Assembly (NCBI GenBank): GCA_039810825.1
Contig: JBDHXR010000001.1
Location: 10,486 to 74,485, forward strand
Direction: 5' to 3'
Origin: Fluviicola sp.
GTDB taxonomy: Bacteria; Bacteroidota; Bacteroidia; Flavobacteriales_D; Crocinitomicaceae
Length of the DNA stretch: 64,000 nucleotides
The translations under genes and the position numbers were made by a program. Below the pieces are notes generated by a model. That model was given only the letters and a program-made list of their open reading frames with translations, had not been told where the DNA came from and searched no databases. Shown here piece by piece: positions 39,923 through 45,617 of the stretch (its first letter is position 1; each line of letters starts with the position of its first letter).

Positions 39923-41155
39923 TTAGGATAGCATTGAAATGCTTTTTTCTACTGCTTCAACAAATTTGTCAACTTCTTCTCTTGTATTGTAAAAGGCAAA
40001 TGATGCCCGCACAGTGCCTGGAATTTGATAAAAATCCATCAAGGGTTGTGTGCAATGGTGACCTGTTCTTACTGCAATCCCTTGTTTATCCAGCAATGTG
40101 CCCAAATCAAACGGATGAATGTTGTGTGCATGAAACGAAACTACAGAAGCTTTGTTTTTCGCCGTACCAATAATCGAAATATTTTCAAAAGTACTTAATA
40201 AATCCTGCGCATAATCAGTAAGTTCATGTTCATACGCTTCAATATCTTTCATGTCGAATTGACTTACATATTCCAATGCTTTTCCTAAACAAATTGCTCC
40301 TGAAATATGTGGAGTGCCAGCTTCAAATTTAAAAGGCAACTCATTGAAGGTTGTTTTTTTGAAGGTGACTTTTTCAATCATGTCTCCGCCTCCTTGATAG
40401 GGCGGCATTGCTTCTAACAAGGCTTCTTTACCGTACAGTATCCCAATTCCCGTTGGTCCGAATACTTTGTGACCAGAGAAGGCAAAAAAATCACAATTTA
40501 ATACTTGAACATCCACCTTTAAATGCTGAATACTTTGCGCTCCATCAATCATAACTTTTGCCCCTACAGCATGTGCCAACGTTATGATTTCTTCTATAGG
40601 ATTTATTGTGCCCAAGGTGTTTGAAACATGTGTAACTGAAACCAATTTCGTTTTTGATGATAACAAGTTTTTATATGCATCAAGATCAAGTTCACCCCTT
40701 TTGTTGATAGGTATCACTTTCAATTCCAATCCTTTTCTTTCTGCTAACATTTGCCATGGAACGATGTTTGAATGATGCTCCATAGTTGATATGATAATTT
40801 CATCACCTTTTTGCAACAGTTCTCCAAAAGAAAATGCTACCAAGTTTATACTATCTGTGGTTCCTTTTGTGAAAATAATTTCTTCTTTCTTTTCTGCATT
40901 GATGAACTCACGAACTTCTTCACGTGCATATTCGTAGTCATTGGTTGCTTGCTGACTTAAAAAGTGAACACCTCTGTGAATGTTTGCATTGCTCTTTGCA
41001 TAATAGGTATTGATTGCATCAATTACCATTTGAGGTTTTTGTGAGGTAGCTCCGTTGTCAAAATAAATCAAATTTTTATTATAGACTTGTTGGTGCAATG
41101 AAGGAAAATCTTGTCTTATTTCTCTGACGCTAAATTTTCTAAAAGAAGGTTCCAT
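39923..41155 (-). CDS. sufS: Cysteine desulfurase SufS
   Basis: YFDNGATSQKP, NIHRGVH, EHHSNIVPW, FSGHKVFGPTG (PLP lysine), VRTGHHC. Confidence 0.95.
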   Translation of the reverse strand: MEPSFRKFSVREIRQDFPSLHQQVYNKNLIYFDNGATSQKPQMVIDAINTYYAKSNANIHRGVHFLSQQATNDYEYAREEVREFINAEKKEEIIFTKGTTDSINLVAFSFGELLQKGDEIIISTMEHHSNIVPWQMLAERKGLELKVIPINKRGELDLDAYKNLLSSKTKLVSVTHVSNTLGTINPIEEIITLAHAVGAKVMIDGAQSIQHLKVDVQVLNCDFFAFSGHKVFGPTGIGILYGKEALLEAMPPYQGGGDMIEKVTFKKTTFNELPFKFEAGTPHISGAICLGKALEYVSQFDMKDIEAYEHELTDYAQDLLSTFENISIIGTAKNKASVVSFHAHNIHPFDLGTLLDKQGIAVRTGHHCTQPLMDFYQIPGTVRASFAFYNTREEVDKFVEAVEKSISMLS

Positions 41156-41220
41156 TTCACAAAATTACAAAATGCTATTTATATTATTTCTAAATAGTAC
41201 TAAAATCTTGTGATATTAAC

Positions 41221-41255
41221 AAAAAAAACCCCCAATTATTTTTTGTAATTGGGGG
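41221..41255 (-). terminator. Strong intrinsic terminator
   Basis: 10-bp stem CCCCCAATTA (41229-41238) / TAATTGGGGG (41246-41255), followed by 8 U on the minus strand. Confidence 0.9.
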
Positions 41256-41478
41256 AGTTGCTACCACACGTACTTTTTTCTATCAGTCTGTACATGTTTT
41301 TTACCTAACTGAAACCTAAACTAACTTAAACTGTTACCTAACTAATAGTGTTATGTGACTGATAGAGTATTTGCTACGGTGAATGAGGAATATGGAAAGA
41401 CCCAAAATCCAGATTCTACACATTCACCAAGCACAATTTTTTTCCATGTTTTATGAAACGTTTTTCATTCATGGATGT
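41221..41478 (-). ncRNA. Candidate structured sigma54-dependent small RNA with AGUUAG repeats
   Basis: Four adjacent stems: 41443-41475, 41372-41433, 41280-41288 paired with 41357-41365, and the terminator; three CTAACT copies inside the third loop; no ORF longer than 18 aa found on the minus strand; promoter-like motif just upstream. Confidence 0.6.
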
Positions 41479-41486
41479 GTTTTCAT

Positions 41487-41505
41487 CTATAAACAATGTG
41501 CCAAA
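41487..41505 (-). promoter_or_regulatory. Putative sigma54 (-24/-12) promoter
   Basis: Minus strand TTTGGCAC-ATTGT-TTATAG; -24 box perfect, -12 box is TTAT instead of TTGC. Confidence 0.5.
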
Positions 41506-41567
41506 AGTTGTTTTTACATTAAATGCCTGAAATACAAGGGGGTTGATTTAGATAGTCAGTGATGATT

Positions 41568-41602
41568 TTTTCAAAATGAAAATAATTTTTTCAAAATGAA
41601 AA
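41568..41602. promoter_or_regulatory. Two tandem palindromes TTTTCA-N3-TGAAAA (putative enhancer sites)
   Basis: Identical 15-mers at 41568-41582 and 41588-41602, 20-bp period, immediately after the activator's stop codon. Confidence 0.65.
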
Positions 41603-41603
41603 A

Positions 41604-42956
41604 TTAATCCAATTCTTTCAACATTCTGTAGATGGTAGTTTGCCCAATATCAAGCTTATCGGCTACCAATTTTATGTTATCGTCGTATTTTTCTAAGAAG
41701 AGTTGAACGATTTTCAGATTGTAGGCACGTAAGCTCATTTCCTCAGTTAGTATTGAGGCAAGCATATTTGACGAACCCAATACAATGTCTTCATCTTGAA
41801 TTACATCATCGCTTGAGAGTACTACAGCAAGTTCAATAACCGATTTAAGTTCGCGGACATTGCCCGGCCAATGGTAAGCCATTAATTTGTTTTGAGCGGA
41901 TGCACTTATTTTCTTTTGTGTTATTCCATTTTCATTACAATAGCGTTCACTAAATACAGTACTTAACAAAAGGATGTCCCGATCACGCTCTCTAAGCGGT
42001 GGAAGTTCAATAGGAAGACCAAATAAGCGAAAGTATAAATCTTCCCTAAATTTTCCTGCCTTTACTTCTTGCAATAAATTTCGATGGGTCGCAACGATGA
42101 TTCGGCAATTGAATTTGTACACAATGTTGCTGCCAATTCTAGATGCTTCTCGTTCTTGAATTGCACGGAGTAATTTTGCTTGAAGATGGATATCCAATTC
42201 TGCAATTTCATCTAAAAATAATGTGCCACCATTGGCTTCTTCAAACTTGCCCTTTCTAAGTTGATTTGCTCCAGTAAACGCCCCTTTTTCATGGCCAAAC
42301 AATTCGCTTTCAAACAATTCGTTTGGTATAGCAGCAACATTTACGGCTACAAATGGTTTATCTTTGAAAGTTGAATTGTAATGAATTGCTTTGGCAACAA
42401 CCTCTTTACCGGTGCCTGTTTCACCATAAATTGTTACCGTTATATTGTTGGTAATAGCTTTTTGTAATATTTTGTACACATGTTCCATCTTAGAGCTTTT
42501 CCCAATGATGGTAGAATTGAAGTTGAATTTTGTGCGTACTTCTTGCTCTAACTTTTCAATTTTTTCAATCAATTGAAATTGCTTACCTGCATTTGCAATG
42601 GTATTTAACAAGCGGTTTCTGATATCATTCCCCTTAACGATGTAATCGTATGCTCCAAGTTTTAATAAAGTAACGGCTGTTTCAATATCTTCTTGCTCAG
42701 AAATGATGATGATGATGGTATTTGGGTGATTTTGCTTGATTTTCTGAAGCAATTCTTCCCCTTCAATACCAGGTAACCGATAATCCATGGTTATGGCAAA
42801 AGGAGAGTCTTCTTTAATTGAGCTAAGCATACTTTCACCATCAGAAAATGATTCAACATCATAATCCGGATTTAGAGACAGCAAGTGGACCAATAGCTTT
42901 CTATACCACTCATTGTCTTCAACAACTACAATTTTATTTCCTTTATTTTGTGTCAT
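41604..42956 (-). CDS. NtrC-family sigma54-dependent response regulator (REC-AAA+-HTH)
   Basis: VVEDN receiver, MDYRLP, GETGTGKE, ELFGHEKGAFTGA, LFLDEI, WPGNVREL, Fis-type HTH; start set at MTQNK (42956). Confidence 0.95.
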   Translation of the reverse strand: MTQNKGNKIVVVEDNEWYRKLLVHLLSLNPDYDVESFSDGESMLSSIKEDSPFAITMDYRLPGIEGEELLQKIKQNHPNTIIIIISEQEDIETAVTLLKLGAYDYIVKGNDIRNRLLNTIANAGKQFQLIEKIEKLEQEVRTKFNFNSTIIGKSSKMEHVYKILQKAITNNITVTIYGETGTGKEVVAKAIHYNSTFKDKPFVAVNVAAIPNELFESELFGHEKGAFTGANQLRKGKFEEANGGTLFLDEIAELDIHLQAKLLRAIQEREASRIGSNIVYKFNCRIIVATHRNLLQEVKAGKFREDLYFRLFGLPIELPPLRERDRDILLLSTVFSERYCNENGITQKKISASAQNKLMAYHWPGNVRELKSVIELAVVLSSDDVIQDEDIVLGSSNMLASILTEEMSLRAYNLKIVQLFLEKYDDNIKLVADKLDIGQTTIYRMLKELD

Positions 42957-43302
42957 TTGATATGTAATTTTGTACTTGCACAAGGCAATTATCTATGTGT
43001 GGTATGAGCTCAGTATATTTTGATTTTCGTTCATATCCTTGTGTTGTTTCTGGCATATTTTCTATTTCTTTAATAGCTTTATAAGCATTGTTTCCACCAA
43101 TCTGCATAATTGCTGGAGCTATTTGGTGGGCAATACTTTGTATTTGTTTCCAATCATCTTTTGCTTCTGCTTCTTTGAGTTGAGTCAGTGCATCTTGTGT
43201 TGTGGAGATAAATGTTTCAAGCAGTTCCATCAGAAAATCCTTATCGTTTCCAATGAGTTGAAGCAGATTGATTAAGTCAATTTTATCAAGAGAGTTTTGC
43301 AT
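42943..43302 (-). CDS. Stand-alone Hpt phosphotransfer protein
   Basis: IDLINL..GNDKDFLMELLETF, DWKQIQSIAHQI helical bundle with conserved His; lies between the kinase and the regulator. Confidence 0.82.
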   Translation of the reverse strand: MQNSLDKIDLINLLQLIGNDKDFLMELLETFISTTQDALTQLKEAEAKDDWKQIQSIAHQIAPAIMQIGGNNAYKAIKEIENMPETTQGYERKSKYTELIPHIDNCLVQVQNYISNDTK

Positions 43303-43303
43303 C

Positions 43304-45385
43304 TTACATTCCTATATTTTCAATTTTTTCTTTCAGAATTTGGGGTTGTATAGGTTTAAGCAACACATCTGTCCAACCACGTGAAATCATTTCTTGATAA
43401 ACTTGTTCATCTCCTGCAGCAGTTAACCCAATAATGGGTTGCGCTTTCAATTTATCCAATTGTTTTAGTTTCTCAATAAATTCTTCGCCATTCATTTCTG
43501 GCATTTGAACATCCAATAGTATCAAATCTACTGAATTGATGTTTAATAATGCTAACGCTTCAATACCGTTTGATGCTTCGTGAATTTTCACATTTACTTT
43601 TTTAAACATTCCCTTCAAAAGCATTCTATTAAACGGTTCATCATCTACAATAAGGATAGATTTTTCGGATAATATTGAGAAATCAACACTTGATGTGGTT
43701 TTGGATTCAGACTTATCGGTTGATTTTTTCATAGGAATGGTAATTTCAAAGCATGTTCCTACGCCAAGTTCACTTTGTACAGTTATTTGTCCACCCATTT
43801 TTTGGACGATTTTTTGTGTGATGCTTAACCCTAAACCTGTGCCGCCATATTTTCGTGAAGTTGACGTTTCTGCTTGTTCAAACGGCTCAAATATATGCGC
43901 TAGTTGTTGCTTTGTCATGCCTATTCCTTTATCCTTCACTAGAATAGTACAAATTCCCGCATTTTCTCCATTGAGCTCATACTTTAACCCAACTTCGATG
44001 CAGCTTTCTTTTGTGAATTTATTGGCATTCCCAATTAAGTTTATTAGAATTTGTTTAAACCTCAGTTCGTCGCCAATAAGTGTTGGGAACATTTTAGGTT
44101 CACAATCTACAAGAATTGTATTTTTTTGTTCTTCTGTAGCAAGCGAAAATTGCTGAACAACTAAATTTACAGCTTTAAAAGGATTAAACGGGCTTTCTTC
44201 CAATTTGATGTTGTTTTCTTCTAATTTTGATAAGTCAAGAATGTCATTAACAATTAGCAGTAAGTGTTTTGCCGAGTCATTGATAATAGATGCTTTTTTG
44301 CTAGTTTCAAGCGATAGTTTTTCATGTGTTAATTGTTCAGAAAAGCCAGATATTGCGTTGAGTGGTGTGCGTATTTCATGACTCATTGTGGCTAAGAAAC
44401 GAGATTTTGCTTCTGTAAGTGCATCGCTTTTTTCTTTAGCAAGTTTCAATGAGTAGTTGCTTTCTTTGGCTCGTCTAAAAAGGTAAACGATGAGTATTAC
44501 AATGAATCCAATCAACACTGCAGAAATGGCACTAAAAGTAAGTGTGATGGTGTTTGTTTTCGCGGCAATGGTCTTGGCTTTTTGAGTTTTGTTCACGAGT
44601 TGGGTTCTATCTAAGCTTGCAATTTGCTGAAAAAGAGAATCTATTTCTTTGCTTAGTTGAACGTTACTTTGTTCTATAATTAGTTTTGATTTATTGATAT
44701 TGCTTTCTTTTTCTACTGCTTGTGTTTTAACAAGACCAATTTTTTTCTTTAAATCTTTGGTGTTTTGAGTTGCTATTCTTTCTGTTGCTATTTGCTCGCT
44801 CTTACTCTTCAGTTGGATATCTTCGTTTTCTTTTTTTCGATCTTTTCTTGATTTTCGGGAAGGTTTATCGGCATCTACTGAGTTGTTTTGATTAGCAGCA
44901 GCTTTTCTGATTTCCAACTCAAGCTGAGTGCGTTGGTCGTTTTTTATTACTTCTTTCTCAACCAATTGCATGGTTTCATTAACGCGAGTTTCATTTCGCA
45001 TTAGCATCAATTTAAATTGGTTGTCAAATTTTTTTGAGCTTAGGTCTCTGATTTCCGAAATGGTCTGCTGATAATCATTGTTCTTTTTTTGATAATTTTT
45101 CAAGTAACCAATTTGCCGCAATGTTTTGGATTGTAATATTTCGAAATCCAGCATCGCTTCGTTGTGATTTTGATAGATGTATGTATAGATCAAATTTTCA
45201 GACTTCAATAAGTTTAAATTTATTTCTTGAATCAAAACTTGACTGTTTTTTTCTTCTTCTGTAGGCAATGGAGTGTTGGCTACTTGATCTAACCGTGTAA
45301 ATACAGCGTATCCTGTGGTGCAAACTACAATTAAGAGCAACGCAATCACGCCAAACAATATGCGCTCAAATATTTTTTTTTTCAT
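43304..45385 (-). CDS. Hybrid sensor histidine kinase (two TM helices, HisKA, HATPase, REC)
   Basis: FLATMSHEIRTPLN, NLIGNANKFT, DKGIGM, GGTGLGL, IVDDEPFN..LLDVQMP; start set at MKKKIF (45385). Confidence 0.93.
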   Translation of the reverse strand: MKKKIFERILFGVIALLLIVVCTTGYAVFTRLDQVANTPLPTEEEKNSQVLIQEINLNLLKSENLIYTYIYQNHNEAMLDFEILQSKTLRQIGYLKNYQKKNNDYQQTISEIRDLSSKKFDNQFKLMLMRNETRVNETMQLVEKEVIKNDQRTQLELEIRKAAANQNNSVDADKPSRKSRKDRKKENEDIQLKSKSEQIATERIATQNTKDLKKKIGLVKTQAVEKESNINKSKLIIEQSNVQLSKEIDSLFQQIASLDRTQLVNKTQKAKTIAAKTNTITLTFSAISAVLIGFIVILIVYLFRRAKESNYSLKLAKEKSDALTEAKSRFLATMSHEIRTPLNAISGFSEQLTHEKLSLETSKKASIINDSAKHLLLIVNDILDLSKLEENNIKLEESPFNPFKAVNLVVQQFSLATEEQKNTILVDCEPKMFPTLIGDELRFKQILINLIGNANKFTKESCIEVGLKYELNGENAGICTILVKDKGIGMTKQQLAHIFEPFEQAETSTSRKYGGTGLGLSITQKIVQKMGGQITVQSELGVGTCFEITIPMKKSTDKSESKTTSSVDFSILSEKSILIVDDEPFNRMLLKGMFKKVNVKIHEASNGIEALALLNINSVDLILLDVQMPEMNGEEFIEKLKQLDKLKAQPIIGLTAAGDEQVYQEMISRGWTDVLLKPIQPQILKEKIENIGM

Positions 45386-45617
45386 TTTGGCAACAGTTTT
45401 CAAATTGAAAATTAATCTTTTATTCCTTTGTTTCTATTAAAATTGAAAATATTTTTTTTTAGACATTTACTCTGGCTTTACTTTAGAAAGGTGCAATCTG
45501 AAATTTTTAAGAAAAAAACTACTGTATTTCAATTCGTTTTTCATGAAAAAAAATTAACTTTCCCCCTTTTTATTATTACGACATAATATTTTTTTAATAT
45601 CACTAGCAAAAGGAAAT

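Follow-up and report, generated by a model that had tools for sequence, protein, structure and literature searches.

A structured small RNA bearing a UUAGGU array in Fluviicola, with a predicted sigma-54 promoter and a phosphorelay operon encoded immediately upstream

The 64,000-nucleotide stretch of Fluviicola sp. DNA analysed here (the window; assembly GCA_039810825.1, contig JBDHXR010000001.1, positions 10,486 to 74,485) derives from a genome of 2.78 Mb and 35% G+C. Fluviicola inhabits freshwater and sludge. Between two minus-strand genes, an intergenic gap spans window positions 41156-41603. Within this gap lies a structured, non-coding and independently transcribed small RNA (sRNA) of approximately 255 nt, encoded on the minus strand at 41221..41477; its start is predicted near 41477 from the promoter geometry and its U-tail ends at 41221. 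The gene preceding it encodes an NtrC-family sigma-54 activator, and downstream are sufS, on the same strand as the RNA, sufE and the gene of an Fe-S assembly protein (PF01883). A small protein-coding gene was considered and rejected, the sole short open reading frame (ORF; 17 aa) proving not to be conserved among relatives on reading of the sequences. DNA runs containing the locus sequence came from activated sludge and bioreactors.

The transcript was recovered from six RNA runs (X26, X27, X28, X29, X30 and X38) originating from wastewater, sludge and soil. Each contained a separate contig of 151-209 nt over the sRNA at 100% identity, extending from 41251/41262 to 41459/41467 in five runs and covering 41292-41442 in X38. 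All six runs showed zero coverage at 41474-41596 and at 41146-41227. In X28, the depth over the sRNA was 71.6, compared with 9.3 over sufS and 2.8-6.4 over the activator gene. Run X25 was effectively DNA.

Two properties of the RNA data count against a discrete minus-strand transcript. First, the contigs are strandless and end 10-18 nt before the predicted start and 30-40 nt before the U-tail, at the foot of the terminator hairpin. Such a shortfall at both ends is expected of k-mer contigs of a short RNA, and the minus strand was assigned on the basis of the U8 terminator, the promoter orientation and the G-U pairs in the covarying helices. Second, low-depth contigs from a run labelled 'metagenomic RNA-Seq' (X32) span both borders. 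The latter, together with the shared strand of the sRNA and both of its neighbours, would suit a dependent RNA: with the activator, a 3' untranslated region (UTR) of its mRNA or a product of that mRNA's processing; with sufS, a leader or an attenuator at the 5' end of the operon. However, neither the activator side nor the sufS side was covered in the six RNA runs, a conserved promoter with an upstream activating sequence (UAS) separates the activator gene from the RNA, and in relatives a terminator hairpin additionally lies between the activator gene and that promoter. On the other side, a strong terminator ends the RNA, and the gene downstream of it varies or is convergent among relatives. 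We therefore regard a dependent RNA as exceedingly improbable. The outcome that an earlier sequence-only reading had named as fatal to its proposal, namely that the region appears only as the 3' UTR of the activator mRNA, is contradicted by RNA contigs that stop at 41459-41467 and leave 41474-41596 uncovered.

Folding and an inverted-repeat search placed three stems and a terminator where that reading had drawn them. Stem 1, the 5' hairpin (41443..41475), pairs TCCATG (41443-48) with CATGGA (41470-75) around an inner ATGAAA/TTTCAT, and as RNA reads CCAUG-AUGAAA...UUUCAU-CAUGG. Stem 2 (41372..41433) is a long hairpin with an apical UGGGUYU, in which GGTGAATG (41378-85) pairs with CATTCACC (41421-28). 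Stem 3 (41279..41366) is a perfect 10-bp inverted repeat (41279-88 with 41357-66) that encloses a 68-nt loop bearing the repeats described below. The intrinsic terminator (41221..41255) has a 10-bp stem (41229-55), five pairs of which are G-C, around a loop of 7 nt, and ends in a U8 tail. The minus-strand fold was modestly better than that of shuffled sequences (z = -2.5), with 0 of 100 shuffles as good.

The stems proposed from the sequence were to be checked by covariation among homologues, and compensatory changes were found in stems 2 and 3 and in the terminator. Across relatives, 8 of the 10 terminator pairs carry compensatory changes, as do 8 of the 21 pairs of stem 2 in a 15-sequence alignment; the UGGGUYU apex of stem 2 is kept in all lineages. 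In the helix of stem 3, 97.6% of cells pair and three pairs have double changes. Its outermost pair is U-A in our genome, A-U in the main group of relatives, C-G in L024 and G-U in L020. Many G-U pairs are compatible with the minus strand only. When 25 distinct sequences were aligned by fitting them to the model, the proportion of pairing cells was 98.3% and double changes were seen in 11 of the 17 pairs, a result matched by 0 of 500 shuffles and approached by no slid register. These covariation counts are inflated by that fitting and by two rows of the alignment that are spurious. By eye, type-A relatives possess a stem-1 hairpin of like layout built from other letters (UCACUU-UUGAAA...UUUCAA-AGUGA). 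The structure of stems 2 and 3 and of the terminator is thus backed by conservation and covariation at the sequence level.

RNAalifold favoured an alternative helix, possibly a pseudoknot (41261..41297), in which ACAUGUAC (41290-97) pairs with GUACGUGU (41266-73), extended by CUAUC from the 5' arm of stem 3 (plus-strand 41284-41288) with GGUAG (41261-65). This helix would compete with stem 3 or knot across it. The G003 genome has a counterpart, ACACGUG/CACGUGU, with one compensatory A-U to G-C change, and type-B RNAs have no clear equivalent.

The search of Rfam that had been proposed for the region returned no matching family: in Rfam 15, nothing reached the gathering score anywhere in the window, and at E <= 10 only chance matches to the terminator were seen, the best being NsiR1 (24.7 against 39 bits, terminator alone). 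Discrete RNA contigs, covariation and the lack of a conserved ORF support the original view of a structured non-coding RNA.

The RNA is confined to part of one genus. By BLAST, 16 of the 35 other Fluviicola genomes contain the 3' half of the region, always downstream of an orthologous activator gene (75-78% identity). A covariance model of the 3' domain extended this to 19 of 36 Fluviicola genomes and had no hit in any of 265 genomes belonging to 28 further genera of the family. A divergent copy in G010 brings the number of Fluviicola genomes with the RNA to approximately 20 of 36, and a metagenome scan added six further loci. Four RNA types can be distinguished. Our genome carries the short form of approximately 255 nt with three repeats, the main group an RNA of approximately 415 nt with an extra hairpin and five repeats, and type B an RNA of approximately 460 nt with four repeats, GGUUAGGUAUUAGGUUAGGUAUUAAGGUAU. 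In the G003 type (L045 / L238, G003:C6), an ORF for a 173-aa DUF4382 lipoprotein (E = 4e-36) is situated between the 5' and 3' domains. This ORF reads across the 5' arm of stem 3 and terminates shortly after it, and the repeat domain is a 3' UTR there.

This last form, with its coding sequence between stems 2 and 3, raises the alternative that the sRNA is a UTR relic: a coding part as in G003 would have been lost elsewhere, and the UTRs, fused by the loss, would do little by themselves. Conversely, the ORF-less form occurs in all other loci, is under strong purifying selection and has covarying helices, and in the sampled communities the RNA was more abundant than its neighbouring genes. We consider a relic very improbable.

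The loop closed by stem 3 contains three UUAGGU motifs (41303..41341, minus strand), seen on the plus strand as ACCTAA at 41303, 41314 and 41336, with more UAG triplets in between. UUAGGU, with the core UAGG, is the sole loop element common to the four RNA types, in which it is found in 3-5 copies at variable spacing. The repeat array noticed in the sequence-only reading is accordingly real, whereas the AGUUAG that had been taken as its unit is not what is conserved. The exact repeat reported at 41301 and 41334 is genuine, TTACCTAACT occurring twice in the 64-kb window at these two positions against a shuffle expectation of 0.10. Three of the 11 plus-strand copies of ACCTAA in the window fall within 39 nt at the sRNA locus. 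In the 2.78-Mb genome, at least three UUAGGU copies within 80 nt were found at the sRNA locus and at two copies of another sRNA only, which is described below.

Upstream of the RNA is a sigma-54-type promoter, TGGCACATTGTTTAT (41489..41503, minus strand), of the form TGGCAC-N5-TTTAT, with a perfect -24 box and TTTAT as -12 box. The consensus TGGCA(C/T)(G/A)TT(C/G)TTTA(T/G/C) was present in 26 of 26 loci. Two identical dyads, TTTTCAAAATGAAAA (41568..41602), follow each other with a 20-bp period, beginning 2 nt past the activator stop codon, and are presumed to be the UAS of the activator. In all 26 loci, a pair of such TTTTCA-N3-TGAAAA dyads precedes TGGCAC by 64-65 nt. Our genome has a single copy of the dyad pair, and in the genus the pair is found in the same species as the RNA. 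The genome encodes rpoN, and the activator carries the GAFTGA motif.

Counting against a sigma-54 promoter, the -12 box lacks the canonical GC (TTTAT rather than TTGC). We do not give this great weight, since other TGGCAY-type sites in the same genome, situated 29-42 nt (mostly 40) before start codons, are also without GC at -12 (TTGAA, TTTGT, TTTTAA). A sigma-A promoter (TAnnTTTG) for the RNA was examined and rejected: the nearest match overlaps the -24 box, is unconserved and would give a start approximately 28 nt upstream of the RNA contigs. We have high confidence that the locus encodes an independent, sigma-54-dependent sRNA. Sigma-54 promoters of this lineage may, to judge by their sequences, have a relaxed -12 element. 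Examples of TGGCA(C/T)-N5-TT located a constant 40 nt before start codons are at C21:184, C28:4440 (-), C36:1268 and C101:2114.

The same dyad pair was also observed in metagenomic Bacteroidota, 76-81 nt upstream of kdpFA promoters with a canonical TGGCAC-N5-TTGGC. Such kdp-type loci (L072, L077, L082-L084, L089, L092, L103 and others) have TGGCACA(A/G)CTTTGGC before kdpF-kdpA in gut Bacteroidales and other Bacteroidota, and in some of them a gene for a paralogous NtrC-type activator lies directly upstream. Kdp thus appears to be sigma-54-controlled in those Bacteroidota via the same type of enhancer. Since the dyads precede canonical sigma-54 promoters at kdp, we take the dyad to be a genuine enhancer type.

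In most relatives (L009-L023), a terminator-like hairpin (AAACCGTTGAT..ATCAACGGTTTTTT) is located between the dyads and the sigma-54 promoter; our genome is without it. In those relatives, the terminator of the activator gene would sit within the control region of the sRNA.

The activator gene (41604..42983, minus strand) encodes a REC domain, an AAA+ domain with GAFTGA and a C-terminal helix-turn-helix (Pfam Sigma54_activat, E = 1.1e-67, plus Response_reg). Its true start is probably the methionine at residue 10. No NCBIfam equivalog cut-off was reached by the activator. In each of the loci examined, the RNA is preceded by an orthologue of it (68-78% identity). The adjoining gene (42943..43302, minus strand) specifies a 119-aa Hpt phosphotransfer protein (Pfam Hpt, E = 6.8e-6), which has the conserved histidine in SIAHQIAP and is kept in relatives. 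It is preceded by the gene of a hybrid histidine kinase (43304..45403, minus strand), comprising a first transmembrane segment, a periplasmic region of approximately 250 aa, a second transmembrane segment and HisKA, HATPase and REC domains (Pfam; hydropathy likewise indicates two transmembrane segments). The best partial NCBIfam matches of the kinase were LuxQ, BarA and TorS, all under cut-off. Kinase orthologues (43-47% identity) occupy the same position in three other Fluviicola genomes, and the order kinase-Hpt-activator-RNA is common to four: our own, F. taffensis (G035), G009 and G003. On these sequence grounds, the RNA is probably switched on by the sensor relay through sigma-54.

The kinase start codon has a third TTTTCA-N3-TGAAAA dyad, TTTTCAAATTGAAAA (45397..45411), 11 nt upstream, and a degenerate copy is found at approximately 45435-45449. 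Of three relatives checked, two, F. taffensis (G035) and G003, likewise bear a dyad at the head of this gene, and the recurrence suggests feedback autoregulation of the phosphorelay operon. In two species, at L054 (G024:C1:2012723) and L059 (G005:C1:369830), a second dyad pair was observed 14 nt before TGGCACGCTCTCACC, upstream of a gene for a stand-alone receiver domain, a possible further target of the activator.

The genome encodes two RRM_1 (RNA-recognition motif, RRM) proteins. CsrA (PF02599) gave no match in the genome at E <= 0.1, a search that detected it in control genomes, and no Hfq was found in the genome. The 5' regions of the RRM protein genes (rbp) were compared in Fluviicola and in other genera of the family (L136-L175 and L206-L235; in our genome C20:~9200 (-) and C17:~2200 (+)). 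In 18 of 18 Fluviicola genomes, UUAGGUAA, that is UUAGGUA(A), stands directly against the AUG of the type-2 rbp gene, often with one or two more copies flanking a small hairpin. In our own genome it is the type-1 rbp gene that has the full motif, AUUAGGUAAAA, placed 13 nt ahead of the AUG. Of 21 orthologous rbp loci outside Fluviicola but within the family, 7 carry TTAGGT in the 60 nt upstream, as against 0.37 expected (binomial P = 5e-8); the loci are phylogenetically non-independent and come from four genera (five by eye). TTAGGTA(A) is not a general start-site motif, approximately 10% of its copies preceding an ATG ORF. The start-codon UUAGGUA(A) of rbp is a candidate autoregulatory site. 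Furthermore, the rbp copies are in the same sense as the repeats of the sRNA, and it follows that the two RNAs could not pair with one another through the motif and could only compete for a common partner.

In the light of published work on Bacteroides, this partner is most economically taken to be an RRM protein. In vitro, the RbpB protein of B. thetaiotaomicron binds a 3x GUAGGAUA probe (KD 5.1 uM; 10.1101/2021.04.27.441718), and it also binds the FopS sRNAs in their single-stranded 5' part (PMC11697453). The rbp genes of Bacteroides are under negative control by themselves and by one another, exerted partly via their 5' UTRs (PMC13370968). For GibS, FopS and RbpB, the published papers offer no printed motif with which the repeats could be compared.

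A search of the genome for motif clusters also revealed a second, multicopy candidate RNA gene. A 24-mer, UUUAGGUGGUUAGGUUAGGUUGAU, recurs unchanged, in 1-6 copies, in 35 of the 36 Fluviicola genomes. Each element consists of a TAnnTTTG (Bacteroidota sigma-A) box, approximately 6 nt, the 24-mer and a covarying terminator hairpin with a ACGCCCGU apex, which would yield an sRNA of approximately 70 nt whose single-stranded 5' end, AUUUAGGUGGUUAGGUUAGGUUGAUUAG, is invariant and contains UUAGGU. Our genome has copies at G000:C44:13398-13425 (-) and G000:C186:2134-2161 (-) and a partial one at C112:421-435; copies in relatives are at L176-L205. No Rfam family matched the element, and the two copies of our genome were not covered by RNA contigs. 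We regard it as a candidate sRNA family of approximately 70 nt with the FopS layout. At the level of sequence, the sigma-54 RNA is a reiteration of the motif of this multicopy family.

We propose the following chain of events. A hybrid kinase sensing the periplasm would pass phosphate via Hpt to the NtrC-type activator encoded immediately upstream of the RNA. The activator would bind the two TTTTCA-N3-TGAAAA dyads and drive sigma-54 RNA polymerase from TGGCAC-N5-TTTAT. The resulting RNA would act in trans as a stand-alone molecule, its UUAGGU array serving as a multivalent decoy for an RRM-1 protein. Firing of the relay would set the RNA in competition with the rbp mRNA and the sRNA of approximately 70 nt for the RRM protein; autorepression of rbp would be relieved and RRM-dependent regulation re-set. 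We advance the whole chain, a decoy for an RRM protein induced through sigma-54 and the activator, as a working model whose prospects are close to evenly balanced, and no better. As for the RRM sponge originally imagined from the repeats, the two RRM_1 proteins of a genome in which no Hfq or CsrA was found, the rbp start motif, the RbpB data and the feedback on rbp genes in Bacteroides lend it circumstantial support, while the RRM protein is a candidate only for binding the motif. The analogy drawn at the same time with Musashi and hnRNP-A1 goes no further than resemblance.

Several observations weigh against the decoy. Comparison of the RRM with PDB sequences revealed generic similarity to many RRMs and no indication of specificity. 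Nearly every one of the 36 Fluviicola genomes carries two RRM genes, with or without the sRNA, and consequently there is no signal of co-occurrence between them. Our own type-2 rbp gene has just UUAG before its AUG. The motifs are only moderately accessible, with predicted unpaired probabilities of 0.23-0.73 in thermodynamic folds and of 0.26-0.52 for the three copies at our locus. Additionally, approximately 16 species of the main group share one unvarying 60-nt loop, down to its spacers, while stems and terminator drift; a long pairing surface or a need for exact spacing would account for this pattern no less well than a simple array of motifs.

The same invariance is what would be expected of a base-pairing sRNA, the main rival, in which the UUAGGU copies, the invariant loop or the UGGGUYU apex anneal to ACCUAA-type sites in mRNAs. 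In one variant, the RRM protein would act as chaperone, as RbpB does with GibS and FopS, and the 70-nt sRNAs would share seed and targets with the longer RNA. The 24-nt 5' end of the multicopy sRNA, perfect in 35 of 36 genomes, is seed-like, and FopS and GibS, which have the same layout, act by pairing. However, complementary sites in the genome were no longer than expected by chance, 10-12-mers occurring at the expected rate, and duplexes were not enriched at approximately 2150 crudely called translation starts (-10.3 versus -11.1 kcal/mol for coding controls; a crude test). Moreover, the RNA types share 5-6 nt only, their copy number varies, and base pairing leaves the same-sense motif at the rbp start codon unexplained. 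We judge base pairing unlikely as the explanation, though still a serious contender; decoy and pairing roles could coexist.

The plan of the locus has precedents in other bacteria. CrcZ of Pseudomonas is an sRNA of a few hundred nucleotides encoded directly after the gene of the NtrC-family activator CbrB and transcribed from a sigma-54 promoter with an intergenic activator site; several copies of a short motif in it titrate an RNA-binding protein, Hfq. The Fluviicola RNA resembles CrcZ (and CrcY/CrcX) of the CbrA/CbrB system in its activator-adjacent gene, predicted sigma-54 promoter with a presumed UAS, length and motif copies. It differs in lacking homology (no Rfam match), in repeating UUAGGU rather than an A-rich CA motif, in its hybrid kinase and Hpt relay, and in belonging to Bacteroidota, with an RRM-1 protein as candidate ligand and Hfq absent from Fluviicola. 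GlmY of Enterobacteria likewise depends on sigma-54 and an activator, is encoded beside the GlrK/GlrR genes and is a decoy that mimics GlmZ to sequester RapZ. The likeness here is that the motif repeated in the Fluviicola RNA is also that of a multicopy sRNA family. There is, however, no homology, GlmY mimics one whole structure rather than presenting a motif array, the protein class is another, and mimicry in Fluviicola is inferred.

The Qrr system of Vibrio (LuxQ/LuxU/LuxO) follows the same plan of hybrid kinase, Hpt, NtrC-type activator, sigma-54 and adjacent sRNA gene, and LuxQ and LuxO were among the best partial NCBIfam matches of the relay, far under the equivalog cut-offs. Qrr RNAs are approximately 100 nt long, Hfq-dependent and base-pairing, whereas Fluviicola has no Hfq and its RNA no match to Qrr in Rfam. 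With CsrB, RsmY and RsmZ, the RNA shares a multivalent, short, purine-rich motif that is also found at start codons of mRNAs of the protein itself or its targets. In contrast to those systems, no CsrA was found in the genome, the motif is UAGG(U) rather than GGA in hairpin loops, and control is of the sigma-54/NtrC type rather than through GacA/UvrY.

To our knowledge, Bacteroidota are without Hfq, ProQ and CsrA. RRM-1 proteins are the leading candidates for organising post-transcriptional control in this phylum. The closest comparison within the phylum is that of FopS and GibS with RbpB in B. thetaiotaomicron, where an RRM-1 protein binds single-stranded parts of sRNAs (PMC11697453). RbpB binds a UAGG-containing motif in vitro, and the multicopy sRNA of Fluviicola has the single-stranded 5' end and terminator of the FopS layout. 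Conversely, the sigma-54-dependent RNA is 4-6 times longer than these sRNAs, is highly structured and reiterates the motif in a closed loop; FopS pairs with susC mRNAs and has no described sponge role, and neither Fluviicola RNA matches Rfam.

Hallmarks of sigma-54-controlled sRNAs and of protein sponges can be recognised in the Fluviicola RNA. Those of sigma-54-controlled sRNAs are a UAS, an activator and RpoN, together with an independent non-coding transcript ending in a terminator; binding of the activator to the dyads is predicted. Those of sponges are a short motif in 3-5 copies whose number and spacing vary across the four RNA types, and the presence of the same motif at the rbp start codons, where its regulatory role is inferred. 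In the literature searched, we found no report of an activator-driven sigma-54 sRNA in Bacteroidota, none of a bacterial sponge for an RRM protein, and no defined in vivo motif, autoregulatory site or antagonist RNA for RRM-1 proteins. The architecture is of a known kind; new are the family of RNA, its motif, the phylum in which it occurs and the class of protein proposed. Tentatively, and with somewhat less assurance than the chain itself, we suggest that this may be the first bacterial RRM-1 sponge sRNA and the signal-controlled arm of a three-part UUAGGU network, the members of which would be the rbp mRNAs (autoregulation), the constitutive multicopy sRNA of approximately 70 nt and the sigma-54-induced decoy.

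If true, Bacteroidota lacking Hfq and CsrA would possess a global switch comparable to Csr or Crc, built on an RNA-binding domain of eukaryotic type with a preference for UAGG like that of hnRNP-A1. The model offers a testable triad in the UUAGGU motif, its position at the rbp start codon and a signal-inducible RNA displaying it in 3-5 copies, and F. taffensis DSM 16823, which carries the system with a type-A RNA, is cultivable. Should the decoy model fail, the locus would still represent a new, expressed, genus-restricted sRNA family under phosphorelay control.

Another RNA was observed on the contig that carries one copy of the multicopy sRNA. An abundant RNA contig (depth 19.5, 8 differences) covers the intergenic interval L134:1469-1689, equivalent to G000:C44:13868-14088. 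Within it (L192:1990-2025), a near-threshold match to the DUF805b RNA motif of Rfam was recorded, at 34.2 bits against a gathering score of 35.6.

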